Of a stretch of DNA of 64,000 nt, positions 15,739-30,952 are shown piece by piece; positions within the stretch are counted from its first letter, which is position 1; every line of letters begins with the position of its first letter. The stretch lies in contig CAWAEG010000011.1 in assembly GCA_963780895.1 (NCBI GenBank), forward strand, positions 37,024 through 101,023, in the 5' to 3' direction. Under the pieces are notes generated by a model, which saw nothing but the letters and a program-made list of their open reading frames with translations, was not told where the DNA came from and did not search any database. Source of the stretch: an uncultured Acidobacteriota bacterium. Its GTDB lineage: Bacteria > Acidobacteriota > Vicinamibacteria > Vicinamibacterales > SCN-69-37. Made by a program: the position numbers and the translations under genes.

Positions 15739-16719
15739 ATGAACATCTACGAGCAGCAGGCCGCCAACCGGCGGCGCACCTGGTTGGTGATGGCGGGGTT
15801 CATCGCCTTTCTCGCCATCCTCGGCGCGGGTTTCGATCTGTTCATCATCGGCAATGGAGAGTTCTTCGCGCCCGTCGCGACGTCGCTCGCCGTGGCGATC
15901 GGCGCGGGACAGTCCTGGTGGAGCCTGCGCCACGGCGATCGCGCCGTCCTGAAGTCGAGCTCCGCCGTTCCGATCGAAGATCGTCTCGCGCAGGCTTCCT
16001 CCGACGAGGACCGTCTGCGCTACCGCCAGTTCGAGAACATCGTCGAAGAAATGGCGATCGCCGCGGGATTGCCGAAGCCCAAGGCCTATGTCATCGCCGA
16101 CGCTGATCCGAACGCCTTCGCAACGGGACGGGACCCCGAGCACGCGTCGATCGCGGTCACCGATGGGCTGCTGCGCGCCCTCAACCGCGAGGAGCTCCAG
16201 GGCGTGGTCGCGCACGAAATGGGACACGTCCGCAACCTCGACATCCGGCTGATGACGGTCGTTGCCGCGCTCGTCGGGGCGATTCTGCTCCTCGCCGACT
16301 GGTCCGGCCGCGGGATGCGGTTCGGCGGAGGGTCGTCACGCTCGAGCAGCAAGAGTAAAGACGGCGGCGGAGGCCTCGGCGTGATCTTTCTCGTGATCTG
16401 GATCGCCGCGATCATCCTCGCGCCGTTCCTCGGCCGTCTTCTCGCCACGGCCGTGTCACGGCGGCGGGAGTACCTGGCCGATGCGACGGGGGCGGAGCTG
16501 ACCCGCCATCCCCTGGCTCTCGCCAACGCGCTGGAAAAGATTGAAGGGGCGCCAGGCCCCACGCCGAGCGTCAAGCGCGGCACCGCTCACATGTGCATCG
16601 CGGATCCACTCGGGCTGAGGATCGACAACACCGAAAGCGGCTGGGCGAACCTCTGGGCGACACACCCGCCGATGGCCAAGCGCATCGCGGCACTCAAGGC
16701 CATGGCCTATCAGGCCTAG
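15739..16719 (+). CDS. htpX: HtpX-family M48 membrane zinc protease
   Basis: PNAFATG, AHEMGH (HExxH), REYLAD and THPP; adjacent to lemA. In-frame alternative ATG at 15718. Confidence 0.92.
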   Translation: MNIYEQQAANRRRTWLVMAGFIAFLAILGAGFDLFIIGNGEFFAPVATSLAVAIGAGQSWWSLRHGDRAVLKSSSAVPIEDRLAQASSDEDRLRYRQFENIVEEMAIAAGLPKPKAYVIADADPNAFATGRDPEHASIAVTDGLLRALNREELQGVVAHEMGHVRNLDIRLMTVVAALVGAILLLADWSGRGMRFGGGSSRSSSKSKDGGGGLGVIFLVIWIAAIILAPFLGRLLATAVSRRREYLADATGAELTRHPLALANALEKIEGAPGPTPSVKRGTAHMCIADPLGLRIDNTESGWANLWATHPPMAKRIAALKAMAYQA

Positions 16720-18125
16720 TCGTCGTCCACACCGGCGTTGCGGTCAGGCAGGCCCGTCCCGCGCGTTTCCGACGTCACGAATCCGAAGAGCGCCAGGTTG
16801 ATCAGGCTGAGGACCACGGTCAGATCGAGCCCCGTCACGCTGCGTTCGAACGGCAGCGGCCGGCCGTCGCCGATGCCATAAAAGACGTACATGTTGATCG
16901 CGCAGATCGCGGAGACCGCATAGAACGGCGCGCGAAACCTGCGCTCGAGTCCCGCCGCGAGCCCGAAGAAGGGCACTGCCAGGTAGAGGTGGTTCTCGTG
17001 GACCTGCGCGGCGAACATGAAGTACGCGAATATGCACCAGCCGGCCGTCGCCGCCCAGACCGACAGCGACCGCCGGGTGCCGAAGCGCCACAGCACCCAG
17101 ACAATGAGCAGCGCGACGATCCCGGAACCGATGAATTTCGGGTCGACAAAGGCGATCTCCATGAACCGCTGGCGCCCGAGAATTCGGACCGGCATCGTGA
17201 ACGCCTGGAACGGCCCCAGATGTAGGGCGTAGACCGCGCGGAGGATCCAGGTGACCAGCCACCACGCGTTCAGAGCGTAGCCCGAGAGCATGTCGTGTGA
17301 GGCCAGCCGGCTGACGGCCTGCAGCATGCTCGGCCCTGCGCCACGCAGGACGATTGGCAGCACGATGATGGCCGCCGTGACGCTGGCGCCGATCGCGAAC
17401 GACCGCAGGTTTCGCTTCGCGAGCTTGTCGAGCCGCATGAATCGCAGCGCGAGGTCTTCCTGTCTGCGCATGGCGACCAGCACGATCACCGGGGCGACGA
17501 ACAGGGCCTGCGCCTTTGTCAGCACGGCCGCGGCCGTCAGCGCCCCGGCGGCCGCCGGAAAACCACCCGCCGCGGCGACCAGCGCGAGGAGCGCCGGTGC
17601 CGCCATCTGCGCGTCGAGATAACCCAGCGCAGCGCCGTTCACGATCACGGCCGGGTTGAGCCAGATCGCGAGCGCCGTCCAGGTTGCCGCCTCCGGTCCG
17701 AACAGCCGCCGGCCCCAGACCATCAGGCCCATCACCAGCGTGATCTCCGCGATCACGCCCGGCATCTTCACGAGCGCGGTGAGGAGCGGCGTGTCGTCGT
17801 ACGCCGGATCGATGGCCCGATAGATCCGGCCGACGACGGCGAGCTCGTAGAGCGCCAGCGGCGGGTATTCGGTCGTCGATTTGATTCCGCGCCAGTGAAT
17901 GACCCGGCGCTCGGGTGGCTTGCCGCCCACGCCGTAGAGCGCGGTCGCGTCGGTGGACGCGCCGAAGCTCCAGGTTTTCCAGGAAGCGACATCGGGCGAT
18001 CCGGGCACGGGAAGGAGCACGACCCGGATGATCGCGCCCAGCGCGAAGCCGGCGATGACGAGGGCCGTTCTTACGCGCCTGGGCAGACGTGAGAACGGCC
18101 CGAGACGGCTCGCCCGCCCGGCCAT
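16716..18125 (-). CDS. GT-C fold membrane glycosyltransferase (GT87/PigM-like)
   Basis: Multi-TM protein with EYPP, LNPAVI, GYLD, TKAQ and QVHENHL. ATG 18125 overlaps the rhomboid stop. Confidence 0.7.
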   Translation of the reverse strand: MAGRASRLGPFSRLPRRVRTALVIAGFALGAIIRVVLLPVPGSPDVASWKTWSFGASTDATALYGVGGKPPERRVIHWRGIKSTTEYPPLALYELAVVGRIYRAIDPAYDDTPLLTALVKMPGVIAEITLVMGLMVWGRRLFGPEAATWTALAIWLNPAVIVNGAALGYLDAQMAAPALLALVAAAGGFPAAAGALTAAAVLTKAQALFVAPVIVLVAMRRQEDLALRFMRLDKLAKRNLRSFAIGASVTAAIIVLPIVLRGAGPSMLQAVSRLASHDMLSGYALNAWWLVTWILRAVYALHLGPFQAFTMPVRILGRQRFMEIAFVDPKFIGSGIVALLIVWVLWRFGTRRSLSVWAATAGWCIFAYFMFAAQVHENHLYLAVPFFGLAAGLERRFRAPFYAVSAICAINMYVFYGIGDGRPLPFERSVTGLDLTVVLSLINLALFGFVTSETRGTGLPDRNAGVDDD

Positions 18126-18892
18126 CAATGGATGTGGTTCTTCCAGTTGTCGTCGCGTCCGCCGCGGTGAACGTCGAAACGCCGCCGCATGCGATCCATC
18201 CGCCACTTGGTGAGCCGGTATTTCAGATCGAGACGAAGATTCGTCGGCCCCTTGAGGTAGATCCAGCCGACGATCATGCCGCCGAGGTGGGCGATCTGGT
18301 TGACCGGCCCGCCGCCGCCCGCGCTCATCGCCGAGAGAAACGCGATGGCGCCCATGATGATCGCGAAGACTTTCGCCGGGATCGGGAACAGCATCATGAA
18401 CAGGATCATTCGGTGGGGAAACACGATCGCCCACGCCAGGATCAGGCCATAGATCGCCCCCGATGCGCCGATGGTCGGCACGCTGTAGAGCGCTCTCACC
18501 GACTCGAGCGGCATCAGGGAGATGACAACCGTGGACAAGCCCGCGCCGATCCCCGTCAGAAAGTAGTACCGCGTGAACGCCTGCGTGCCCCAGCGCCGTT
18601 CGAGATCGACGCCGAACATCCAGAGCGCGAGCATGTTGAAGAGCACATGCGTCACGATCGACCGTGCAGGAACAGGTATGTGACGATCTGCCACAGCCGC
18701 CCCTGGGTCGAGGAACGCGTCAGGCGTCAAGCCGAACAGTCCGACGAGCGGGTTCAGCTGTCTCCCTCCGGGTTCGGCGAAGACCAGCACGATGAAGACG
18801 GCAATGTTCGCAATGAGGAGGAGCCGAATGGCCGGTGAAACCCCTCCTGGCCCGAACGTGATGTGCGTTCCCGACGGCGCGTACCGGCTCAC
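18125..18892 (-). CDS. Rhomboid intramembrane serine protease (with a compensating indel pair at about 18660-18712)
   Basis: HVLFNM, GASG and AHLGG. The conserved WQIVTYLFLH segment is in a shifted frame. Confidence 0.9.
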   Translation of the reverse strand: MSRYAPSGTHITFGPGGVSPAIRLLLIANIAVFIVLVFAEPGGRQLNPLVGLFGLTPDAFLDPGAAVADRHIPVPARSIVTHVLFNMLALWMFGVDLERRWGTQAFTRYYFLTGIGAGLSTVVISLMPLESVRALYSVPTIGASGAIYGLILAWAIVFPHRMILFMMLFPIPAKVFAIIMGAIAFLSAMSAGGGGPVNQIAHLGGMIVGWIYLKGPTNLRLDLKYRLTKWRMDRMRRRFDVHRGGRDDNWKNHIH

Positions 18893-18894
18893 AC

Positions 18895-18946
18895 GACCTC
18901 CGAGGTCATTTTACGCTTTTCGAAAAATGGACCTCGGAGGTCATTT
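18895..18946. repeat. Palindrome doublet ATGACCTCnGAGGTCAT (copy 2)
   Basis: gacctccgaggtcatttt...aaaatggacctcggaggtcattt. Confidence 0.85.
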
Positions 18947-20510
18947 CCGCCGCGATCACGCGCTGCATGACCTGACCAAACTCCTCGATTCTCAGCGCCG
19001 CCGCGGACACCGCCAGCGTGGCGAGCGCGATGCCGATAGCCCCGAAAACCCTGATCGTGCGCGGCAGCCACCACGGATCGGGGAGCAGCCGGTGCAGCCA
19101 CGTTTCGGCGTAGTAGGCCGCGACGCCCATCACGGCCGACGCGATCAGAATCTTCAGGAGCGAACGGGTGACGCGCGCGCCGTCCAGTCCGCCGAGCCGC
19201 CGCGACAGCAGGAACAGCAGCAGGCCCGCATTGACGTTCGCGGCGACGGCCGTGCCGAGCGCCAATCCTCGGAACTGCAGGTCCGTCGAGTTCAGCCAGA
19301 TGTTCAGCACGAGGTTGAGCAGGATGCTGACGATGCTGATCGTGGCTGGCGTCCGCGCATCCTGCAGCGAGTAGAAACCGGGCGAGAGGATCTTGACGGC
19401 CGAATAACCCAGGATGCCCGGCGCATAAAAGAAGAGCGCGCCGGCGACGAGGATCGTGGACTGCGTGTCGAACCTGCCGTACTCGAACAGGAGCTCCACG
19501 ATCGGACGCGCCAGCACCATCATGCCGACAACCGCCGGCACGCTGAGCATCAACATGAGCCGGAGTCCCCATGAGACCGTCGCGCGCATTTCGCGGAACG
19601 CCGCGCTCGCCGCATGGCCCGCGAGATCGGGAATCGCCGCCGTCGCCACCGACACGCCCACGATCCCGATTGGAACGTAGATGAGCCGGAACGCGTACTG
19701 CAGCGCCGCGGCCGCGCCGTCCTGGCCGGTGGCGAGTGACGTGCTGACGAACAGATTGATCTGCGCGGCCGCGACCCCGAGCGTCGCGGGGCCCATGAGG
19801 ATGAGCATCTCGCGCAGTCCTGGATCGCGGAAGTCGACGATCCACTGATGCCGGTAGCCCTCCTGCCGCAGCGCCGGCCACTGAATGACGACCTGAGCGA
19901 CGCCGCCGAGGAGCATGCCCGCCGAAAGCGCCATGACCGGTTCCATCCCCATCCGCGTGAAGATGGGCACGAACACGATCGTGCTGATGATGAAGACGAC
20001 GTTGTACATCGCGGGCGAGGTGGCCGGGATGAAGAACCGGCGCACCGAGTTGAGCATCCCCATGAACGCCGCCGCGACCGCGACGAGCAGCAGGAACGGC
20101 ATGTTCACGCGCGCGATGAGCGTGGTGAGCGCGATCTTCTCGGGCGTGTCGGTGTAGCCCGGGGCGTAGTTGTACGCCAGCGGTTCGGCGAACACGATGC
20201 CCAGGATGACGATCGCGCCGGTGACGAGCAGCAGCCAGTTGACGACGAGCGATCCGAGCCGCCACGCCGCGGCCTTGCCTTCGTTCTTGAGGTACCGGGC
20301 GATCGTGGGTACGAAGGCGGCACTCATCGCGCCTTCGGCGAAGAGGTCGCGGAGCAGCGTGGGGATGCGCGTGCCGACCGCGAACGCGTCCGCGGCCGCG
20401 CCGGTGCCGAAGTACGCCGCCATGACCTGATCGCGGACGAGACCGAGGACGCGGCTCGTCGTCGTCGCCAGTCCGATGAGACCGGCGGATCGCGCCAGCC
20501 GTTCCGTCAT
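18906..20510 (-). CDS. murJ: Lipid II flippase MurJ/MviN
   Basis: SRVLGLVRD, RIPTLLRDLFAEGAMSAAFVP and FYSLQDARTP. Confidence 0.95.
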   Translation of the reverse strand: MTERLARSAGLIGLATTTSRVLGLVRDQVMAAYFGTGAAADAFAVGTRIPTLLRDLFAEGAMSAAFVPTIARYLKNEGKAAAWRLGSLVVNWLLLVTGAIVILGIVFAEPLAYNYAPGYTDTPEKIALTTLIARVNMPFLLLVAVAAAFMGMLNSVRRFFIPATSPAMYNVVFIISTIVFVPIFTRMGMEPVMALSAGMLLGGVAQVVIQWPALRQEGYRHQWIVDFRDPGLREMLILMGPATLGVAAAQINLFVSTSLATGQDGAAAALQYAFRLIYVPIGIVGVSVATAAIPDLAGHAASAAFREMRATVSWGLRLMLMLSVPAVVGMMVLARPIVELLFEYGRFDTQSTILVAGALFFYAPGILGYSAVKILSPGFYSLQDARTPATISIVSILLNLVLNIWLNSTDLQFRGLALGTAVAANVNAGLLLFLLSRRLGGLDGARVTRSLLKILIASAVMGVAAYYAETWLHRLLPDPWWLPRTIRVFGAIGIALATLAVSAAALRIEEFGQVMQRVIAAEMTSEVHFSKSVK

Positions 20511-20528
20511 CGGCGCCGGAGAGTACAG

Positions 20529-20568
20529 AAAAAAAGAAGGGGCCTCAACCCCTGCGGTTGAGGCCCCT
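20529..20568 (-). terminator. Intrinsic terminator
   Basis: 13-bp stem AGGGGCCTCAACC/GGTTGAGGCCCCT, 5-nt loop, followed on the - strand by TC and a T7 tract. Confidence 0.9.
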
Positions 20569-20609
20569 GCCCGGAGGATGGATGAGAGGCTCTTTGCGTG
20601 CCTTTCACT
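20529..20609 (-). ncRNA. Candidate ~80-nt small RNA with a CU-rich seed
   Basis: ECF-type promoter upstream, CCUCUCAUCCAUCCUCC segment, and a strong terminator. Confidence 0.6.
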
Positions 20610-20613
20610 AGTC

Positions 20614-20640
20614 TTAGACGAAGCTCGTTTGAAAAAGTTT
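20614..20640 (-). promoter_or_regulatory. ECF/RpoE-like promoter
   Basis: The minus strand reads AAACTT-N16-TCTAA, compared with the RpoE/AlgU-type consensus GAACTT-N16-TCTRA. Confidence 0.6.
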
Positions 20641-20646
20641 GCGGTG

Positions 20647-21099
20647 CTATTTCGTTAACCGGGTTTTAACAAGTTCGCTCACGGTGCGTCCGTCAACGGT
20701 CAGTCCCATCAACTTTGCCATCACGGCCTTCATCACTTTGCCCATGTCCTTGGGACCGCTGGCCCCGGTTTCCGTCACGGCTGCCTCGATCGCCTGGTTG
20801 ATCGCCGCGTCGTCGGCGGCCGGCGGCAGGTACCGTTCGAGAAACACAACTTCCGCCTGTTCGCGATCGACCAGATCCTGACGTCCACCTGCGCGGAACT
20901 GTTCAATCGAGTCACGCCGCTGCTTGACGAGCGCCATCACGACCTGCGTGGACTCGGCGTCGTCCGGGGCGCGTCCCTTTTCGACTTCCTTGTTCATCAG
21001 CGCCGCCTTGAGCATGCGCAGCGGCGCCAGCGTCGCCTGATCCTTCCGGCGCATGGCGTCGGCAATGTCTTTGGTGATCTGCTCTAACAGACTCGGCAT
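20647..21099 (-). CDS. GatB/YqeY domain protein
   Basis: KQRRDSIEQF...YLP...KDMGKVM pattern. Confidence 0.93.
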   Translation of the reverse strand: MPSLLEQITKDIADAMRRKDQATLAPLRMLKAALMNKEVEKGRAPDDAESTQVVMALVKQRRDSIEQFRAGGRQDLVDREQAEVVFLERYLPPAADDAAINQAIEAAVTETGASGPKDMGKVMKAVMAKLMGLTVDGRTVSELVKTRLTK

Positions 21100-22289
21100 C
21101 AATCACCCTTACCCTTTGACTGTGACCTTCCCTCTGGTCTTTGGCCTGTGCCCTTTGCCCTTTGATATACGGCACTATACGCGCTCTCGACAGCGGCCGG
21201 CCCGAACCGTCGGTTTACCAACTCGATCGAGGACGGGCTGGCGCGCTGAGGCTGCTGGAGAGCCTCCACAATAGCGCGCGCCAGCAGGTCGGTGTTGCCC
21301 CGCGGCACCACCAGCACGTCGTCGCCGAACAGCTCGTTGAGCTCGACGCCGCCCGGATGGTCGGCCGAGACGACGGGCGTTCCCGATGCCAGCGCCTCGA
21401 CGGCGACCGTCGGCAGCGCTTCGAGGAGCGACGGCAGCACGAACAGATCGGCGACCGCGGCGTGGCGCGCCACCTCATCGTTCGAGATCAGACCGGTAAA
21501 CGTCACACGTGACTCGATGCCCGCGTCTCGTGCCTGCCGCTCGAGATCCTGGCGCAGCGGACCCGTGCCGCAGATCACCAGCCGGACGTCCTCGCGGCCT
21601 CTCGTGGCCCGCGCGAACGCGTCGATCAGGAACTTCTGGCCGGCGAGCTCGTGCAGGCGCTTCACGTTCAGCACCACCAGCGGCTCGCGGATGCCGAGGG
21701 CGGCGCGCCAGGCTTGACGTGTCGCCTCGTCGCGCGGCTGGAAGGCGGGCCCGACCGCGGGATAGATGACCGACAGGCCGGGACGATCGAGACCCAGCTC
21801 CTTCGCCCGGGCCAGCAGTCGTGCGCTGTAGAAAATGACTTCGCTCGCGCTTCGAAAGGCGCGCGTGAACGGGTCAATCGGCCAGCGCGGCCGGTAATGC
21901 CAGATCTCGGTGCCGTAGAGCGTGAGCACGAACGGCCGTTGGCGGTGACGAGCCCATGCCGCGGCCACCTCGACGATGAGTCCGTTGCTGTGAAGGTGAA
22001 GGACGTCCGCGTCGTGTGCCGTCGCGTCGAGCGCCGCGCTGATGGCTTTCGAGTGACGCCACGCATCGATCCGCAGCACGCCTCCGAGGCCCCACGCCCG
22101 GTTGCGCCGCGGCAGCCGCTTGACCTGCCCGGGCAAATCGTCCGACGCGGCCCGGCCCTGCGCCGGTTCGAGCGAGAGGAATCTCACCTGGTCTCCGCGA
22201 GCGGCCGCCCAACGGCCGAGCTCGGCGGGCAGCAGCGCGTTTGCCCCCTGGTCCGGCGGGAGATGAGGGGTGACGTGGCAAATCTTCAT
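21099..22289 (-). CDS. GT4 glycosyltransferase
   Basis: FVLPSLLEALPTVAVEALASGTPVV. Confidence 0.9.
   Translation of the reverse strand: MKICHVTPHLPPDQGANALLPAELGRWAAARGDQVRFLSLEPAQGRAASDDLPGQVKRLPRRNRAWGLGGVLRIDAWRHSKAISAALDATAHDADVLHLHSNGLIVEVAAAWARHRQRPFVLTLYGTEIWHYRPRWPIDPFTRAFRSASEVIFYSARLLARAKELGLDRPGLSVIYPAVGPAFQPRDEATRQAWRAALGIREPLVVLNVKRLHELAGQKFLIDAFARATRGREDVRLVICGTGPLRQDLERQARDAGIESRVTFTGLISNDEVARHAAVADLFVLPSLLEALPTVAVEALASGTPVVSADHPGGVELNELFGDDVLVVPRGNTDLLARAIVEALQQPQRASPSSIELVNRRFGPAAVESAYSAVYQRAKGTGQRPEGRSQSKGKGD
21106..21165. repeat. Degenerate 6-7-mer array (CCTTTG-like) inside the GT4 3' end
   Basis: cctttga ctgtga ... cctgtgc cctttgc cctttga; encodes the tail KGTGQRPEGRSQSKGKGD. 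Confidence 0.6.
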
Positions 22290-23257
22290 GGCCGCGAGTA
22301 CGTCCGGCGGAATTCGGCGAACGTCTGTGGCTCGACCCGAAGCTCGCGCGAGGCGTACTCGAAGAAGCGGCCGAGCCGGTCGAAAAAGCCGTTCAGCTCC
22401 GACTCGGTTCGGTTATAGGGACTGCCGCCGACGATCGCCTCACTCGAGTGAAAGAGAAGATTCAGCATCGGCGCGCCGCGATCGACGATCTGCCTGGCGA
22501 GCGCCATCATGTCTTCGGCCGAGCTGTACGACGGGCGCAGCCATCGCACGTGCGCGATCCTGAGCAGCCGAAGGATTCGCCGCGTCGTGTAGGGAGACGG
22601 CGCGCGGCCGTACAGACGTTCGAGCCAGCCGGGCACCCGCCGGCTGAGTGCGGCCGAGATCGGCAATTCGAGCAGGCCGCTCGATCCCGATTTCGTCGCG
22701 TCGTCGTACGCCAGGTAGTAGGGCGTCAGCGGCGCGCCGACGAAGTCCGGTCCGCCCTTGTGCTTTTCGTAGAAGAGCGGCGCGACGCTCGATTCGATCA
22801 GATAACCGGCGCGCTCGAGCGAGGAGACGTGCCTCGCCGAAAAACCGAACCGTCCGGACCGGTATGACACCGGCCGTTGTCCAACGGCCGCGTCGATCGC
22901 GTCAGTCAGGATGAGCAGCTGTTTGTCGAAACGTTCGAGCGGCAGCGACGACGCGTAGGGGTGTCGATCGAGGTCGTTCTGATCGAACGGCGGCGTTTCC
23001 CACGCGTGATGATGGGCCCCGATCTCGCAGTCGCCGCGCGCCAGGAGCGTTCGCAGCGTCTCGCCAGATCTTTCATCGCTCGCGACCGGATAGGTGATCA
23101 CGTACGTCGGCCGGACGCCATGACGCGTGAAGAAGTCGTGCAGACGGCCGAGCGCATAGATGTTGTCGAACCGCTGGTGGCGGCGGGCGTCCGCGTCCCA
23201 CTGGTTGTCGCCCTCGGTATCGATGGCGACGAGCAGCGCCGGTTTGCGAGGTGTCAT
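22286..23257 (-). CDS. Polysaccharide deacetylase-like (WalW/NodB-type) protein
   Basis: AIDTEGD, EIGAHHH, SYRSGRFG and LFHSSE. Confidence 0.8.
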   Translation of the reverse strand: MTPRKPALLVAIDTEGDNQWDADARRHQRFDNIYALGRLHDFFTRHGVRPTYVITYPVASDERSGETLRTLLARGDCEIGAHHHAWETPPFDQNDLDRHPYASSLPLERFDKQLLILTDAIDAAVGQRPVSYRSGRFGFSARHVSSLERAGYLIESSVAPLFYEKHKGGPDFVGAPLTPYYLAYDDATKSGSSGLLELPISAALSRRVPGWLERLYGRAPSPYTTRRILRLLRIAHVRWLRPSYSSAEDMMALARQIVDRGAPMLNLLFHSSEAIVGGSPYNRTESELNGFFDRLGRFFEYASRELRVEPQTFAEFRRTYSRP

Positions 23258-24297
23258 CGATCCTGATCCGAGTCGCCGAGCGTCACGTGCCAGCGGTCGC
23301 GCGCTTCATAGAAGCCGCCTGGAACCTCGACCGCGTTCACTTTGGCCACGAACTCCATCGACGACTTCCGCGTGTAGTAGCCGGACTTCCGCAGCAGCTT
23401 GCGGAACCCTTCATGCATGGCGAAGGTCCGAATCTTGTCCGAATCGGCGGCACGCGCCTCGCGATCCACCCACCGAAGCAGCGTCAGGAACCCGGTCGTG
23501 TCGGCCGGATCCGTCAGGAAATCCACGAGCAGCGTCACGCGGTCGCGCGGCTCCTGCCGATGCCGGTACACGACGTACCCGGCGGCTTCCCCTTCGCGTT
23601 CGAGGACCGCGATCGAATACCGAACGTGCGGCGCCTGGATGTATTTCCAATTCAGGTACGGCGCATCGCGGCGGATGGCGAAGCTGAAGCGGCCGCCGAT
23701 CCGCTCCCAGAGGCGGGTGAAACGCTCGTCGAAGTGGCGAATGGTGCGCACCTCGCCCTGCAGCGGCCGGGTGCGTGACACGAGCTTGATCCACGGCAGC
23801 GTGACGTACGACACGAGCTTGTTGATCGCGAGCGGCCAGTTCGGCTGCCGCAGCGCGCGGCGGCTGAGCGGCTTGACGAGGCACGGCACCGGTCCCACGT
23901 CGGGCCAGCGCATCTTCTGGAACAGCCGGTACGACGAATCGGACAACCCGAGTCCGAGCGATGCGCCGGTGTGTCGATCCCACGTTCGGAACAGCGCGTC
24001 GCCCAACCCCTGGCGCTGACGCTCCGGCGCGACCATGACGTCCATTCCCCAGGAGCCGTTGACTTCGTGGCCGTTGACTGCCAGACGCACGGGCATCGTC
24101 CCGTACTGGCCGATGATGGTCAGCCCCTCACGCGCGAGCCAGATCATCGGACCGTCCGACGGCGCGTTCGGATTGCGGTGGTACTGCCATTCCCATCGCA
24201 GCCGGTTCGCGTCGGCCATATCCGGACCGAACACGCGCCTGTACAGCGCCTCGACCTGGCGGCGGTCCTCCGGTTTATAGCGGTCGATTTCAGCCAC
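23254..24297 (-). CDS. GNAT-family acyltransferase
   Basis: DVMVAPERQRQGLG acyl-CoA motif. GTG 24297 has GGAGGT 7 nt upstream; alternative in-frame ATG at 24318. Confidence 0.8.
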   Translation of the reverse strand: MAEIDRYKPEDRRQVEALYRRVFGPDMADANRLRWEWQYHRNPNAPSDGPMIWLAREGLTIIGQYGTMPVRLAVNGHEVNGSWGMDVMVAPERQRQGLGDALFRTWDRHTGASLGLGLSDSSYRLFQKMRWPDVGPVPCLVKPLSRRALRQPNWPLAINKLVSYVTLPWIKLVSRTRPLQGEVRTIRHFDERFTRLWERIGGRFSFAIRRDAPYLNWKYIQAPHVRYSIAVLEREGEAAGYVVYRHRQEPRDRVTLLVDFLTDPADTTGFLTLLRWVDREARAADSDKIRTFAMHEGFRKLLRKSGYYTRKSSMEFVAKVNAVEVPGGFYEARDRWHVTLGDSDQDR

Positions 24298-24356
24298 TGA
24301 AATGACCTCCGAGGTCATTTTTCAAGATTCGTAAAATGACCTCGGAGGTCATTTCA
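24298..24356. repeat. Palindrome doublet ATGACCTCnGAGGTCAT (copy 3)
   Basis: Perfect 24-bp IR at 24298-24321 and 24333-24356. Confidence 0.9.
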
Positions 24357-25188
24357 CCGGCTCCAGCACGTATTCGATATTACTGATCAGCACGTCCTGG
24401 GTCAGGGCGCTGTCGCGCAGCCAGCGTCCGATGGCCGCGGGCAGCCGGCGGACCGTTCCGGTGACGTGCAGCTCTTCACGGAGCACGCGCAAACCGGCCT
24501 GCGCGATCTGCCCGCGCAGCCGTTCGACGCGGACCTTTTCGAGCAGATCGTCCTCCTTGGCGATGCCGCGCTGGGCGTCGCGGATGAACGAGTTCTCGTG
24601 GGCGGGCTCTTTCAGCGTCCACGGCGCGGATCTCGCGAGCATTCGAAAAATGCGGAACGCGGCGGCGCGGCCAATCAGCAGGTGCAGCGGCACCGGAATC
24701 CGCAAACGCGGCAAATGCGCACCGGCAAACGAGAGATACGGGGCAGTCGAGAGATAACATCGCCCGCCGGTCCTGAGCACGCGACGGCATTCCTGCAGGT
24801 ACAGGCGCGCGTCGGGTACGTGCTCGATGACCGCATGTGACAGCACCAGATCGAACGTCCCTCCGGCAAAGGGGAGCGCCATGCCGTCGGCGAGCGCGAA
24901 GTGCAGATTGGTCGCGCGCCGCTCGCGCCCGAGCGTCACGCCAGCGTTCCGGAACCGATCCAGCGGATCGATCCCCACGACCTGCGAGGCGTGTTCGGCG
25001 AGCGACAGGGGCATGCCGCCGCCGCCACATCCCGCATCGAGGATGCGTCCGCCGATCGTCACGCCGGCGCGCTCGAGAAAGGCGATGACTTTGCCGCTCC
25101 GGTAGTACTCGAACAATGCGTAATCGTATTCGGAGCGAAATCGTCGGTCGGCGTGCGACTTGATCAGGTCGTCTCTAATCTCGCGCAC
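24349..25188 (-). CDS. Class I SAM-dependent methyltransferase
   Basis: ILDAGCGGG, FDLVLSHAVIEH and LRTGG. GTG at 25188. Confidence 0.88.
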   Translation of the reverse strand: MREIRDDLIKSHADRRFRSEYDYALFEYYRSGKVIAFLERAGVTIGGRILDAGCGGGGMPLSLAEHASQVVGIDPLDRFRNAGVTLGRERRATNLHFALADGMALPFAGGTFDLVLSHAVIEHVPDARLYLQECRRVLRTGGRCYLSTAPYLSFAGAHLPRLRIPVPLHLLIGRAAAFRIFRMLARSAPWTLKEPAHENSFIRDAQRGIAKEDDLLEKVRVERLRGQIAQAGLRVLREELHVTGTVRRLPAAIGRWLRDSALTQDVLISNIEYVLEPVK

Positions 25189-26899
25189 TGGGAAATTTGT
25201 TGATGAGGGTGGCGCGATCGAGGGCCGGAGTCTCGTCGATTTCGAAGCTCGCGACCTCTCTTCGGTTCGGGTACCGCTCGAGCAGCTCGATGATGAGCCG
25301 CCCTTCGTGACCGCTTTCGTAGCCCACGCGCGGCAAAGTGTAGGTGAGTATATAGCGCACGTCATCGCGCTGCAGGCGATCGGCGTAGTTGCCAAACCCG
25401 TTGCCGATGAAGATCGGCCGGATCCGGTTTTCGAGCGCCAGCCCGTTTGCCAGCTTGCCGTGGACGAGCGTGCCGGAGTCGACGAGCCGGCCGACTTCAA
25501 TGGATGCCCGGTAGTTGTAATCGCCCGCGCGAGCGGCCCACTGGCCGTACTCGATCAGATTGAACGTGACGGCCACGGCGACGAGCGCGCCCGCGACGGC
25601 GGGCGACACGCGCGCTCGCGAGAACACCGCGTAGATCGGCGACCACCGGACGATCATCGCCAATGTCCACGCGATCGCGATGAACGCCGAGCCTCGAACG
25701 GCCGAGCGGAGGTTTGAGGCCGCGATCTCGTCGAGAAAAAGCATTCGGACGAGGCTGCCGGCGACGATGTACGACAACAGCATGAACACCGGCAGCGCGA
25801 CCCATCGCAGGGCCACGGGTGGCGCGATCGACGGCACCAGCGTCCGGCCGGATCCGGCCAGGAGTGACGCCAGCGCGATGAACGCGGGAACGAACATCAC
25901 GTAGCGGCGCTCGTTCCCCGAATCGTGCGCAATGAGCTCGAGAAAACCCAACACGACCCAGAGCGCCAGCAACCGCTCGCCTGGCTTCGCCGTCCGCCAG
26001 CCGAGCACGATCCCCATGAGCGCGATCGAACCTGCGGCCACGACCAGCCACGTGCGCGTGAACAGACCGTGGACGATCGGCAGCCACGATGCCCGATCGA
26101 CAAACGCGCCAAGCGCATAGGACGGCTTGCGCATGACCGTCATCTGCCAGTTGTAGAACTGGTATTCGGTCCAGTTGGGCAGCACGAACGCGAGTCCGAT
26201 CGCGAAGGCCGACACGCCGATACCCGCGAGCGTCCACAGGGCCGGCCGAGGGTCGGCCTCGGGCATCTCCTGCGACATCCCGGGTTGGGCCCGCGGCCGG
26301 CGCGACAGCCAGAGCGTCCAGAGTGCGTCGAGGACGAGCGCGGCCACGAAAAACGCGGCCGCCGCCTTGGTAAACCACGCGAGTACCGCAAAGAGCCCGG
26401 CCGCGAAGCCGGCCGCGGGCCGCTTGTGAGCGACCGCATACGCGCCCCAGGCGGCGACGATGAATCCGATCATCGGCGACTCGAGCAGCGCGGCCCGGTT
26501 CCACATCACGAAGACGTAGTTGGTGGCGAGCAGCACGCCGCCGATGAGCGCCACGCGCCGCCCGGCGAGCGCGTGAAGCCCGGCGACGAGCATCACGACC
26601 GCCGCGAGCCCCGTGACGACCGGCGCCACGCGCGCCTGCCACGTCCCGACGCCGAACGCTTCGAACGCGGCGTATTCGAGCGCCGTGAAGACGGGCGCGA
26701 TGAACACCGGATTCCATTCGTCGGTGCGCCAGACGTCCCAGAGCGCGCCGTTCCTCGCGTTGTGGACCCACGCGCCTTCGTCGTGCCACACGATCCCGAC
26801 ACCCTCGGTCGGCGGATCGGCGCGGAGCCACAACGTGCGCAACACGATGCCGGCAAGGAGTGCGATGAGAAGACCCGCGACGAAGGCGCGGCGCGTCAA
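25175..26899 (-). CDS. ArnT/PMT-family (GT-C) membrane glycosyltransferase; start uncertain
   Basis: WHDEG first-loop DE motif, many TM helices, RAALLES and ERRYV. Confidence 0.8.
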   Translation of the reverse strand: MTRRAFVAGLLIALLAGIVLRTLWLRADPPTEGVGIVWHDEGAWVHNARNGALWDVWRTDEWNPVFIAPVFTALEYAAFEAFGVGTWQARVAPVVTGLAAVVMLVAGLHALAGRRVALIGGVLLATNYVFVMWNRAALLESPMIGFIVAAWGAYAVAHKRPAAGFAAGLFAVLAWFTKAAAAFFVAALVLDALWTLWLSRRPRAQPGMSQEMPEADPRPALWTLAGIGVSAFAIGLAFVLPNWTEYQFYNWQMTVMRKPSYALGAFVDRASWLPIVHGLFTRTWLVVAAGSIALMGIVLGWRTAKPGERLLALWVVLGFLELIAHDSGNERRYVMFVPAFIALASLLAGSGRTLVPSIAPPVALRWVALPVFMLLSYIVAGSLVRMLFLDEIAASNLRSAVRGSAFIAIAWTLAMIVRWSPIYAVFSRARVSPAVAGALVAVAVTFNLIEYGQWAARAGDYNYRASIEVGRLVDSGTLVHGKLANGLALENRIRPIFIGNGFGNYADRLQRDDVRYILTYTLPRVGYESGHEGRLIIELLERYPNRREVASFEIDETPALDRATLINKFPSARD

Positions 26900-26915
26900 G
26901 GTCGGAACCGCATGA

Positions 26916-26923
26916 ATTATAGT
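26916..26923. promoter_or_regulatory. Overlapping divergent -10 elements (TATAAT on -, TATAGT on +)
   Basis: ATTATAGT in an approximately 30-bp gap between divergent genes; GTG 26930 is 6 nt downstream of TATAGT. Confidence 0.6.
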
Positions 26924-26929
26924 GCTCGC

Positions 26930-27697
26930 GTGACGTCGCTTCCGCAGGCCGAGGTGACGATCGTCGTGCCCACCTACAATGAACGCGATCGACTGGCCGA
27001 GCTGGTGAATGCGCTCTTCGACGCGTGCGACCAAGCCCGCCTCGCCCTCGAGCTCGTCATCGTGGACGACAACTCACCGGACGGCACCGGCGCGCTGGCC
27101 GACGATCTGGCGCGTACGCGGCGGATGCGCGTGGTGCACCGCGCGGGCAAACTCGGCCTGGGCACTGCCGTCGTCGCCGGTTTCGAGGTCGCGTCGGCGC
27201 CGCTCCTGGGCGTCATCGACGCGGATCTGAGTCACCCGCCGCAACTCGTGCCCAAGCTCGTCGCTGCCCTCCGCGCGGCCAACGCCGACCTTGTCGTCGC
27301 CAGCCGCTACATCTCCGGCGGTTCGACGTTTGGTTGGCCGTGGAGCCGGCGTCTGATGTCGAGGCTCGCGTGCGGGCTGGCAAGGCCGCTCACCCCCATT
27401 CGCGATGCGACCTCCGGGTTCTTCGTGATCCGCAGCGAGTTCGCGCGCGGCGTGGCGATACAGGCGGGCGGATTCAAGATCTGCCTGGAGCTGCTCATGC
27501 GCGGCTGGCCCATCAGCCTGGTGGAGGTGCCGTATCGCTTTGCCGACAGGGAGCAGGGGGAGAGCAAGATGAGCTGGAAGGAGGCCGCACGGTTCTTCGT
27601 CCAGCTGAAGAATCTCTACGTCCTCCGATTGACAGGACCGCGACGGGCGCCTCAGCAGCACCGCGTCTTCACGACAGCGGAAGTCGAACGGCTCTAG
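26930..27697 (+). CDS. Polyprenol-monophosphate glycosyl synthase (DPM1-like GT2)
   Basis: VVPTYNE, DDNSPDGT, DADLSHPP, SRY and GESKM. Confidence 0.9.
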   Translation: MTSLPQAEVTIVVPTYNERDRLAELVNALFDACDQARLALELVIVDDNSPDGTGALADDLARTRRMRVVHRAGKLGLGTAVVAGFEVASAPLLGVIDADLSHPPQLVPKLVAALRAANADLVVASRYISGGSTFGWPWSRRLMSRLACGLARPLTPIRDATSGFFVIRSEFARGVAIQAGGFKICLELLMRGWPISLVEVPYRFADREQGESKMSWKEAARFFVQLKNLYVLRLTGPRRAPQQHRVFTTAEVERL

Positions 27698-27707
27698 CAG
27701 GCCGCTG
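27694..27707 (+). repeat. CTAGCAGGCCGCTG repeat (left arm of the IR pair around wzx)
   Basis: Exact reverse complement of 29389-29402. Confidence 0.65.
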
Positions 27708-27715
27708 GGACTGTC

Positions 27716-29299
27716 TCAGGGTTCGGTCTTCCTGGGTTTGTCGTCGACGTCCGGCGGCCGCTCGAGCTCGGGCGCGGCGGCGACAATCTCCCCGGCCATT
27801 TCGACGGTGCCCCCGGGTTCGGGAGCAGGCAGCGCGCCGCCTGACAGCACGCGACGTCGCAGGTCCTGCAGGATCCGAATCTCGCCAGAATGGAAGAATC
27901 CGCTGGAGTACAGCACCAGGATGAAGCTGCCCGTCGAAATCGCCCCGCGGAGGAGAAGGCCGGCGACGGCTCCCGTCGACGTCGGCACGACCCAGGCCGA
28001 CACGGCATAGCCGGCGAGACCGGCGGCCACGATTCGAAGCAGCCGGCTCCACTCGTAGGGAATCGGGTAGACCTTCAACGAAAACGTCACCGTGACACAC
28101 GCCAGCGTGGCGTAGGCGAGGGCGTTGGCCCACGCGGCGCCGATCACGCCATTCCGGCGGATCAGCACGACATTGGCCGCCAGGCTCACGGTTGCCGCGA
28201 TCGCGGTTGCCACCGGGTATCGCGCCGTCCGCTTCGTGATGATGAGCCCGATCGATCCGATCTGATAGATGCCCTGGAACATCACGCCAAGCGCGATCCA
28301 GGGTGTGACGGCCGCTGCCGCGTGGAAGTCCGGTGCCGTGAAGAGGCGAATGAGGTCTGGCGAGATCGCGCAGAGACCCATGCCGAGCACGACGAGCGCC
28401 GCGACCGCGTAGGTCGAAACGGTGCTGAGGATGCGCTTGGCATCGGGTTCGCGCATCACTCCCAGGTAGAAGGGCGTCCAGGCGAATTCGAACGCGCTCA
28501 GAAAGAGCTTCAGCGCCAGCCCGAAGCTCGCGCCGATTGAGTAAAGACCGACCTCGCTCAGCGTCCAGTAGAAATTCAGGAGATACCGGTCCGCGAGGCT
28601 GATGACCTGATGGGCAAGCGAATGTGGAATCCGTGGGAGCCCGAACCGGAGGGCGTCGCGAATGACCGCATGGCTGAACATGGGTCGAATGAGCGGCGCG
28701 AACCACCGGGCGAGCAGGGCCGTGAAGGCGACCGTCACGATCACGTCGGCGTACACCACGCCTGGGACGCCCCAGCCTGCCCAGACGACCAGGACCAGCC
28801 TCGCCAGGACCGTCGCGGCTGACCGCACGAATGTCAGCGCGATGAACTGTGCGGATCGGTCGGCGATGCGCAGGACGTGGTACGGAAGGAAGAAGAACCC
28901 CGCGACGAACGTGTTCGCGATGACCCAGATGACGAGCCCCGCGAGCCTGGCCGACCCGAGGAGTTGCGCACTCAGCCATCCGGCGAAGACGAGCGAGCCG
29001 GCGACCAGGGCGCCATTGACCGCGAGCAGGAAGAAAAAGACGGTGCTGGCCAGCCGCTGCCGCGCCTGCTGATCGGTGCAGTCGTAGTAGAGCCGCATGA
29101 ACGCGGTGTCGATCCCCCACCTGAACACCACCTTGGCGACGGCTTCGACCGTCAGGAGCATCGTGATGATCCCGTAGTCCTCCTTGGTGAGATAGCGCGT
29201 GTAAACCGGCAGGAGAAGGAGATTCACGAGCGATGTCGCGACATCGCCCATGCCGTAAATCGAAAGACTTCGGACTAGATTCTTGAGGCGCTCGAGCAC
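27716..29299 (-). CDS. Wzx-type oligosaccharide flippase (MOP superfamily)
   Basis: LLLPVYTRYLTKEDYG, RFGLP, DRYLL and VGLYS. GTG at 29299. Confidence 0.88.
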   Translation of the reverse strand: MLERLKNLVRSLSIYGMGDVATSLVNLLLLPVYTRYLTKEDYGIITMLLTVEAVAKVVFRWGIDTAFMRLYYDCTDQQARQRLASTVFFFLLAVNGALVAGSLVFAGWLSAQLLGSARLAGLVIWVIANTFVAGFFFLPYHVLRIADRSAQFIALTFVRSAATVLARLVLVVWAGWGVPGVVYADVIVTVAFTALLARWFAPLIRPMFSHAVIRDALRFGLPRIPHSLAHQVISLADRYLLNFYWTLSEVGLYSIGASFGLALKLFLSAFEFAWTPFYLGVMREPDAKRILSTVSTYAVAALVVLGMGLCAISPDLIRLFTAPDFHAAAAVTPWIALGVMFQGIYQIGSIGLIITKRTARYPVATAIAATVSLAANVVLIRRNGVIGAAWANALAYATLACVTVTFSLKVYPIPYEWSRLLRIVAAGLAGYAVSAWVVPTSTGAVAGLLLRGAISTGSFILVLYSSGFFHSGEIRILQDLRRRVLSGGALPAPEPGGTVEMAGEIVAAAPELERPPDVDDKPRKTEP

Positions 29300-29388
29300 G
29301 CGGCGTAAGGCTACTGCGACACGGTCCGGTCTTGCACGCCGCAACGTTCAGTCATGGACGATCGGCCCCGAGGCTGCGGCTGGGTTTT

Positions 29389-29402
29389 CAGCGGCCTGCT
29401 AG
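29389..29402 (-). repeat. CTAGCAGGCCGCTG(AAAA) repeat (right arm)
   Basis: ttttcagcggcctgctag; contains the radical SAM gene stop codon. Confidence 0.65.
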
Positions 29403-30952
29403 GGGCGATCGAGTGATCGTGGCTGGCTGCTGGCCATCTCTGCTGACGGCACCGGGTCGGGCGTGCGCATGCGGGAACCCGCGCGTCGAAAGTCATCATC
29501 CGGGGCCGCGTCGCTCACCGGTGCGCCAAACAGCGCGCGGGACGCGACCTGCCAGACCACGTCCCACTTCGTGGTCGCGAGACGGACGACGTCCCCCGAA
29601 TGCCGCACGAGATAGCCCGGCCGCAGGTAGAAGCGGCGCTTGGCGCGGTTAATCGCGCCCATCACGGTCGGCTCGTCGAGGCCGTTGCCCCGCAGCAGGT
29701 AGTACGAATACTCCATCCGCGTCCAGTCTTCGCTCACGAGCAGGCCTTCGCGCTTGGCCTTGGCGTGCAGCTCCGTGCCGGGGTAGGGCACCGCCGGATA
29801 GAAATTCGCGAAGTCCGGATCGAGCTCGATCGCGTATTGGGTCGTCCGCTCGAGCGACGCGGGCGTCTCGCCCGGATAGCCGAAGATGAAGAAGCCGAAG
29901 GAACGAATGCCGGCGGCGCGCATATTCGCGATCGCGGCCCGGATTTTCTGTCCGTCGAGCCGCTTCATCATGTCCTTGCGCGTGTCTTCGGACTCGGTCT
30001 CGATGCCGAGCGCGAGCATCCAGCATCCCGCCTGACGAAGCCGCCGCACGAACTGCGGGTCGACGAGGTTGTCGGCCCGGGCGTTGCCGAACCATTCGAT
30101 CGGCAGCTTCCGCGCGATCAGCTCTTCGCAGAACGCGGAGAACGTCTTCACGTTGAGCGTGACCGTATCGCCCCAGAGATAGAAGAAGGTGAGACCGAGC
30201 TCCCGATACCCGCGCTCGATTTCGTCCACCAGCGCCTTGGCGCTCTTCTCGCGGAACTTGTGGCCCTGGTGGATCGGCGCCACGCAAAAGTCGCATGAAT
30301 ACGGACAACCCCTCGACGTTTCGACCAGGACGTACGACTTGTTGACGACCGGAAGCCGGTAGACGCCCATATCGAGCAGGTCCCACGCCGGATACGGTGC
30401 GGTCAGAAACCCGGTGAACGTGCCGTGGGCCCGGTGCGGAACGACCTGTCCCTGGCGGCGGAACGTGAGGCTCGGGATCGTGTCGAGCTCGCTCGGCGAG
30501 TCGAGCGCGCCGAGGGCGAGCAGGCCGTCTTCGGGCTCGCCCACGAAGAAACCGTCGACCGAGGGCGCGCGCTCGATCGACTGTTGCGGCGTGGCGGACG
30601 CGAACGCCCCGAACCCGAACACCGGCGCACCGTAGCGCGCCTTCAGCTTCGCCATCTCGGCGGCGTCGGCCTCGAGCGTGGGCGTCGTGCTCGGAAACAC
30701 AATCAGCGTGGGATGAAACTGTTCGGCGTCGAGCCTGGCGATGAGATCGTCGATCGATCGGGCGGTCGCGGTCAGGTCGTCGAGGCGGACGCTCCAGCCC
30801 CGCTCGCGGAACAGGGCGGCGCCCAGCGCCAGCGTATACGGGGGTTTCGTGGTTCCGAGAACTTCTTCCCGTTCCTGACACCGCCCTTGCCGCGTGAACG
30901 CGATGCCGCCCACGAGTGGCGGGTTCACGAAGAGCGTTTTCGCGCCAAGCAT
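29399..30952 (-). CDS. Cobalamin-binding radical SAM protein (class B methyltransferase/HpnJ/BchE-like architecture)
   Basis: N-terminal Rossmann-like B12 domain (VGEPE), SRGCPYSCDFC, GIET, FIFGYPGET and PYPGT. Confidence 0.85.
   Translation of the reverse strand: MLGAKTLFVNPPLVGGIAFTRQGRCQEREEVLGTTKPPYTLALGAALFRERGWSVRLDDLTATARSIDDLIARLDAEQFHPTLIVFPSTTPTLEADAAEMAKLKARYGAPVFGFGAFASATPQQSIERAPSVDGFFVGEPEDGLLALGALDSPSELDTIPSLTFRRQGQVVPHRAHGTFTGFLTAPYPAWDLLDMGVYRLPVVNKSYVLVETSRGCPYSCDFCVAPIHQGHKFREKSAKALVDEIERGYRELGLTFFYLWGDTVTLNVKTFSAFCEELIARKLPIEWFGNARADNLVDPQFVRRLRQAGCWMLALGIETESEDTRKDMMKRLDGQKIRAAIANMRAAGIRSFGFFIFGYPGETPASLERTTQYAIELDPDFANFYPAVPYPGTELHAKAKREGLLVSEDWTRMEYSYYLLRGNGLDEPTVMGAINRAKRRFYLRPGYLVRHSGDVVRLATTKWDVVWQVASRALFGAPVSDAAPDDDFRRAGSRMRTPDPVPSAEMASSQPRSLDRP

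Follow-up and report, generated by a model that had tools for sequence, protein, structure and literature searches.

MicA, RybB and MicL are enterobacterial small RNAs (sRNAs) that depend on sigmaE and work with Hfq. The locus described here shares with them a sigmaE-like promoter and a predicted short RNA with a seed and a terminator (PMC9546586, PMC1312014), but its −35 element starts CAAAC, and its seed is internal and directed against the Shine-Dalgarno (SD) sequence. In Fusobacterium nucleatum, the 87-nt sRNA FoxI is driven by a sigmaE promoter whose motif, AAC / GTCWAA, has been tested by mutation (PMC9546586), and represses mRNAs of envelope proteins through its seed (PMC9546586, PMC11039985). 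Its host is described as lacking Hfq, ProQ and CsrA while having KhpA/B (PMC9546586, PMC11039985), which bind and stabilise FoxI; whether they aid pairing is reported as unclear (PMC11039985). AbcR1/AbcR2 (alpha-r15) and NfeR1 of rhizobia are described as targeting ribosome-binding sites broadly, many of them of periplasmic proteins (PMC8844928). They do so with C/U-rich anti-SD seeds, including one in the single-stranded linker between hairpins; each carries two or three such motifs, and AbcR1/2 are driven by LsrB or RpoH1 (PMC8844928). For all Acidobacteria, a review table gives only four Rfam sRNA families (PMC9029176), and our full-text literature search returned no paper that pairs Vicinamibacterales with an sRNA.

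Here, we analyse a stretch of 64,000 nucleotides (the window) from an uncultured member of the Vicinamibacterales, in which an ECF-dependent sRNA with an anti-SD seed had been proposed on the − strand, just upstream of murJ. All the parts named in that original prediction (AAACTT-N16-TCTAA, a seed, a 13-bp stem and a U-tract) are present on this strand. They occupy the gap between two genes that lie outside the element: yqeY (20647..21099, −; PF09424), whose stop codon ends at 20647, and murJ, encoding the lipid II flippase (18906..20510, −; TIGR01695 over cut-off), which begins with the ATG at 20510. The promoter comprises an ECF/sigmaE-type −35 element, CAAACTTTTT, with core AAC (20632..20641, −; AAACTT at 20640-20635), and a −10 element of the same type, CGTCTAA (20614..20620, −), whose TCTAA (20618-20614) lies 16 nt from AAACTT. 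By sigmaE spacing (PMC1312014), the RNA would start 5-7 nt past the −10 element, at 20609-20607, and the predicted transcript of ~80 nt (20529..20609, −) would have its 3′ end at the U-tract. It would begin with a hairpin, P1 (20583..20607, −), seen in folding and alignments, in which UGAAAGGC pairs with GCCUCUCA with one A-C mismatch; this hairpin is an addition to the parts originally listed. The seed region, CCUCUCAUCCAUCCUCC (20589-20573, −), includes the single-stranded seed CCAUCCUCC (20573..20581, −), the complement of GGAGGAUGG, which is defined by conservation and folding models. An intrinsic terminator (20529..20568, −) follows, with a stem of 13 pairs (20568-20538) and a U7 tract (20535-20529), and a sigma70-like −10 sequence, TACTCT (20520..20525, −), stands 9 nt before the murJ start. 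The − strand thus folds as a weak 5′ hairpin, an open linker and a terminator (z = −3.6), and 0 of 200 shuffled sequences were equally stable. A conserved-looking envelope cluster surrounds the element on the same strand (16716-30952), with genes for a GNAT protein, a polysaccharide deacetylase, a GT4 glycosyltransferase, a rhomboid protease and an ALG6/8-like membrane glycosyltransferase as well as yqeY and murJ.

Many families of Vicinamibacterales share the cassette, with one copy per genome, and its occurrence goes far past chance. BLAST matched it in 29 of 41 genomes, including 23 of 24 within the source family, one of the matches being spurious; promoter, seed and terminator were in register in 28 of the 29 (28/41 overall), with a spacer that is free to vary. 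The sole family member that gave no BLAST match has a divergent copy. Within the order, a covariance model gave matches (E ≤ 0.05) in 60 of 141 genomes, a rough lower count since the model's terminator stem is off by one column, and each of the 60 had one copy, with one exception. The whole cassette was present in 38 of the 40 weaker matches retrieved. The exact 12-nt seed pattern is present in 51 of the 56 family genomes; the unpublished G442 is counted here, and no conclusion depends on this number. A scan of GTDB with a pattern gave at least 120 matches; among the 80 listed, AAC and a terminator accompany all 64 that are labelled Acidobacteriota or Vicinamibacterales, their assignment to the order being read from these labels. 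We rejected 14 of the 16 listed matches with other labels, which had neither a −35 element nor a strong terminator. The other two, loci L286 and L334, carry near-identical family-type copies in genomes labelled Acidimicrobiia and Solibacteraceae, for which an error of labelling or binning is likelier than transfer. Among the genomes searched, promoter plus seed was not found outside Vicinamibacterales: one pattern match in 274 genomes outside the order was rejected for want of a terminator, and 23 weak covariance-model matches were rejected for want of a promoter.

Known RNA families do not account for the element. In Rfam 15, nothing reached the gathering threshold anywhere in the window, nothing real appeared locally at E up to 10, and the Acido-1 and Acido-Lenti-1 motifs, whose exclusion had been proposed as a check, likewise went unmatched at this E-value. 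The best score, 19.8 bits against a cut-off of 39, came from BjrC68 (RF02353); it is driven by the terminator and leaves the seed unaligned, so that the likeness is limited to the terminator and overall length. Titles and abstract openings in the literature yielded no description of the element, though supplements of large RNA-motif screens could hold one. The candidate is likely an undescribed sRNA, outside every Rfam family. No second cassette of the same kind, with promoter and terminator, was found in the source genome. In one genome (G336, locus L078), a CCATCGT/CGATCGA repeat, a long inverted structure just past the yqeY stop, replaces the cassette in the yqeY-murJ gap. A second, different conserved element occurs in family f7 (L540:1400-1600, that is G337:C1:347993-348056, −, and L075, G377:C6:1002600-1002671, −). 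It consists of an AAGC...CGTATAT promoter-like motif, a short hairpin, CCCACCUCCUU and a terminator, and may be a further anti-SD sRNA controlled by a different ECF.

We surveyed the anatomy of 85 copies, obtained from 91 input loci with a parser that required CCUCC. CCAU precedes CCUCC in 83-84 of the 85, whereas the letters past CCUCC vary. Folding leaves the nine nucleotides of CCAU+CCUCC unpaired with a probability of 0.70-0.97 and forms the 5′ hairpin in 83 copies; the seed is thus conserved and single-stranded in the folding models, a trait of sigmaE/ECF-dependent trans-acting sRNAs. In a narrow alignment of 28 copies, 94.6% of cells pair, and double changes are found at 5 of 10 terminator pairs versus 1 of 7 P1 pairs. 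The terminator turns over in sequence between families and retains its pairing. In a wider, model-fitted alignment, in which one row is a false match, one comes from the reverse strand and one is doubtful, double changes appear at all P1 pairs, in 1-4 sequences each; RNAalifold on a wide MAFFT alignment returned no structure. The common changes in P1 convert A-U to G-U and lie on its 5′ strand. The 3′ strand, GCCUCUCA, is better conserved, and it seems to be held by a second constraint. Read on the + strand, the conserved stretch is GGAGG-ATGG-ATG, which could serve a small ORF as its ribosome-binding site and start, with the − strand RNA acting as its antitoxin-like cis antisense. Yet across the 85 copies the frame that opens at either start can be as short as 2 codons or exceed 100, and indels of every size occur, so that this strand has no conserved ORF; promoter and U-tract are both oriented along the − strand. 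This reading is already largely refuted, and we give it hardly any weight.

The neighbours of the cassette are less constant than its seed. While yqeY lies upstream in 80 of the 85 copies, it is missing in five. A close murJ homologue follows in 67; downstream of the other 18 are one murJ that starts at the U-tract, six distant murJ paralogues, ten other genes and one region with no ORF. By our reading of their sequences, the ten comprise six exported FG-GAP-like proteins, two rhomboids, one transporter and one convergent ORF. The divergent copy in G337 adjoins neither yqeY nor murJ. Conversely, among 26 yqeY loci from genomes chosen for having no covariance-model match or for lying outside the order, three have divergent copies, and nine have murJ within ~100 nt and no cassette. 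Because the cassette persists in the absence of yqeY (5/85) or of murJ (10/85), we regard it as a stand-alone non-coding gene, and not as a UTR or leader; this speaks against the suspicion that it might be only the 3′ UTR of yqeY.

The usual position of the element nevertheless invites a cis-acting explanation, namely that it is an ECF-driven leader or attenuator of murJ, or the mere 3′ end of the yqeY operon. Beyond the frequency of both neighbours, the RNA data lend this some support. These data are contigs from four rhizosphere runs of one study, and give neither start nor strand. One 369-nt contig (depth 2.7), identical to the window, extends unbroken from within yqeY (20897) to the last U (20529), and two contigs from related strains cross the terminator; a separate short transcript was not seen in these contigs. 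Furthermore, at five loci (L008 in G018, L191, L193, L197 and L199) murJ starts inside the U-tract or 6-9 nt beyond it, which leaves no promoter room and implies read-through for an essential gene. Against a leader speak both the constancy of the seed while the terminator sequence changes between families and the lack of an antiterminator: the upstream part pairs with the terminator in only 2 of 85 copies, so that 83 show no such alternative pairing. Nor does an attenuator or riboswitch leader fit a downstream gene that is not fixed, or copies that stand before other genes, without yqeY or, in one case, beside neither neighbour. The distance from terminator to murJ ranges from 6 to 309 nt, and 45 of the 67 murJ homologues have a −10 of their own (TAYBMT). 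We therefore judge action in cis to be improbable. The accompanying idea that the terminator insulates murJ, which would use its own −10, holds in the window and in these 45 copies; it fails for several copies in which murJ begins 6-22 nt past the U-tract with no −10, where read-through must presumably serve murJ, and the contigs that cross the terminator speak against it too.

With regard to transcription, the promoter motif equals the sigmaE motif tested in F. nucleatum, AAC and GTCWAA (PMC9546586). It also resembles the E. coli sigmaE consensus, GGAACTTTT / (T/C)GGTCAAAA with a 16-nt spacer (PMC1312014). AAACTT-N16/17-TCTAA occurs once in the 5.9 Mb of the source genome. The looser AAC-N17/18-GTCTAW has 53 sites, 33 of them intergenic and upstream of a gene, whereas with ten other spacers only 12 of 94 sites are so placed, and such positions make up 4.4% of the genome. 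Assignment to the ECF/sigmaE-type class, as originally proposed, is thus supported at the sequence level. Across 41 genomes, AAACTTT-N12-15-CGTCTAW has 26 sites, 24 of which are the sRNA promoter, making this copy nearly the sole bearer of the full −35 T-run in each genome. The other 32 gene-upstream sites in the source genome precede 12 PadR regulators, 8 ADOP permeases (of which the first 400 residues were scanned), 3 ECF sigmas and 9 single proteins: TonB-C, an RND adaptor, DUF1800, CarboxypepD-reg, DUF5916, TPR, Xth, a sulfatase and an unknown protein. Several genes of this predicted regulon are nearly leaderless, with the start codon 6-14 nt past the −10. The source genome has 45 sigma-70 region-2 matches. 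Upstream of the first motif-preceded ECF gene, YAAC/CGTCTAA is kept in 12 of 14 orthologues; upstream of the second, GGAAC/GGTCTAA is kept in 16 of 27. The sRNA promoter is closer to the first, yet this ECF was detected in just 13 of 21 carriers, whereas the second is found in all 21. A role in envelope stress may be suggested by analogy of the motif and by the membrane-leaning regulon.

The comparison with MicA and RybB offered in the original prediction is apt for the promoter and not for the chaperone: Hfq turned up in none of 25 genomes from the source family. In addition, the three motif-preceded ECFs, to which this comparison was confined, score 107-133 bits on TIGR02939, below its RpoE cut-off of 236. 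Given the absence of Hfq from the family genomes, FoxI is a closer analogue than MicA or RybB. Within the order, Hfq is patchy, being present in 9 of 16 genomes of other families, including the carriers G025, G028, G032 and G037. ProQ was found in 0 of 5 genomes and CsrA in 0 of 1, and links to both were rejected as the genes were not found. KhpA was found in 5 of 5 genomes, and khpA and khpB occupy their usual neighbourhoods in the source genome. The candidate is similar in size to FoxI; FoxI belongs to another phylum, no Rfam match links the two, and they were compared by their features. AbcR1/2 and NfeR1 resemble it in the linker seed, but the alpha-r15 RNAs have anti-SD motifs in both 5′ loop and linker, whereas the candidate has a single motif, in the linker alone; its promoter is ECF-type, and no Rfam match ties it to them.

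On these grounds, we consider it probable that the element is an ECF-sigma-driven, trans-acting sRNA that blocks SD/start regions, as FoxI does. An active ECF sigma would drive transcription from the cassette promoter. The ~80-nt RNA would nucleate at GGAGG(AU) through its open seed, and pairing would extend into the weak P1 stem, whose UCUCAU can meet an AUG plus an AGA/AGG codon. Coverage of the SD and start codon of other mRNAs would then block their translation. KhpA/B may have a part in this action. The target set would be broad, variable between genomes and tilted toward exported proteins, because the mRNAs of exported proteins use GGAGG most. The sRNA would form the repressing arm of the ECF response, with the PadR regulators and ADOP permeases in the activating arm.

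We examined potential targets with gene calls and signal-peptide predictions from rough custom scripts. GGAGG is a rare SD in the source genome (~9% of called genes); it precedes 201 of 960 predicted exported genes (21%) versus 199 of 2533 cytoplasmic genes (8%). With an upstream gap above 60 nt, the counts are 163 of 677 and 147 of 1744, and the bias toward exported genes persists at gaps above 10 nt; no SD bias was seen among genes 10 nt or less from the preceding gene. Among 33 members of the predicted ECF regulon, two have GGAGG. The best duplex among 16,292 GGRGG sites, the RNA's own gene aside, lies at C1:377166 of the source genome, G000 (−31.3 kcal/mol). It spans both SD and AUG of a gene whose product is predicted to be exported, with all 18 conserved nucleotides paired and two 1-nt bulges; in two sets of 150 seed shuffles, 3 and 1 respectively reached this energy. 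The site is not retained in 36 homologous starts (best −22.7), these homologues being distant.

Other searches pointed to no individual gene. The source genome holds no perfect complement to 11 nt of the seed elsewhere, and the extra 12-nt sites in 56 family genomes have no gene in common. In a comparison of 15 genomes, carriers have GGAGGATG-N1-3-ATG at ~2.0-2.1 sites per Mb, no denser than the 2.6 per Mb of genomes whose locus is without the cassette. Sites comprising SD and AUG recur in no gene family, one pair excepted, as far as the 88 of 201 sites covered can tell; ~40% of such sites precede signal peptides in all three genome sets. GGAGG-led exported genes pair no better than other GGAGG-led genes (p 0.96), and mean pairing across all sites was exceeded by about 1 in 10 shuffles. 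By analogy, these data would fit a short, generic anti-SD seed such as that described for AbcR1/2 (PMC8844928). Counting against such a generic seed, the conserved stretch of 18 nt is longer than it would need.

A more ambitious version is that the RNA acts as an Hfq-free, class-wide brake, in which one ECF-induced anti-SD RNA throttles the synthesis of secreted proteins while the ECF regulon escapes. Targets would be picked by their mode of translation initiation, GGAGG being rare and ~3x commoner before exported proteins, instead of by gene-specific seeds; the regulon would escape since it is often nearly leaderless and has GGAGG in only 2 of 33 members. We put this forward as a tentative and less likely idea.

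It is also conceivable, if rather unlikely, that the ECF-driven RNA binds a protein or one other RNA, for instance by imitating the 3′ end of 16S rRNA and so titrating a KH-domain protein, or by acting as a sponge. The failure to find a conserved mRNA target would suit this explanation, as would the presence of KhpA where Hfq, ProQ and CsrA were not found. In 28 of 85 copies, moreover, CCUCC is followed by U, and many of these read CCUCCUU, resembling the genome's 16S 3′ end, GAUCACCUCCUUUCU. This match, though, covers only 5-7 nt, which is required of any anti-SD sequence. Protein-decoy RNAs usually carry repeated motifs, and the candidate has a single motif without repeats. Its open C/U-rich stretch between hairpin and terminator is instead the layout of a tested anti-SD seed, aSD2 of AbcR1/2 (PMC8844928).

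Finally, the Vicinamibacterales have been little studied, and the cassette gives this order a well-delimited regulatory sRNA candidate that is open to test. The predicted ECF regulon also suggests how the PadR/ADOP expansion of acidobacteria gets switched on. If the trans-acting sRNA is confirmed, the design of an ECF sigma plus a repressing sRNA would reach another phylum. Hfq is present in some carriers and missing from the whole source family, so the cassette would offer a natural comparison for the study of chaperone-free sRNA action.
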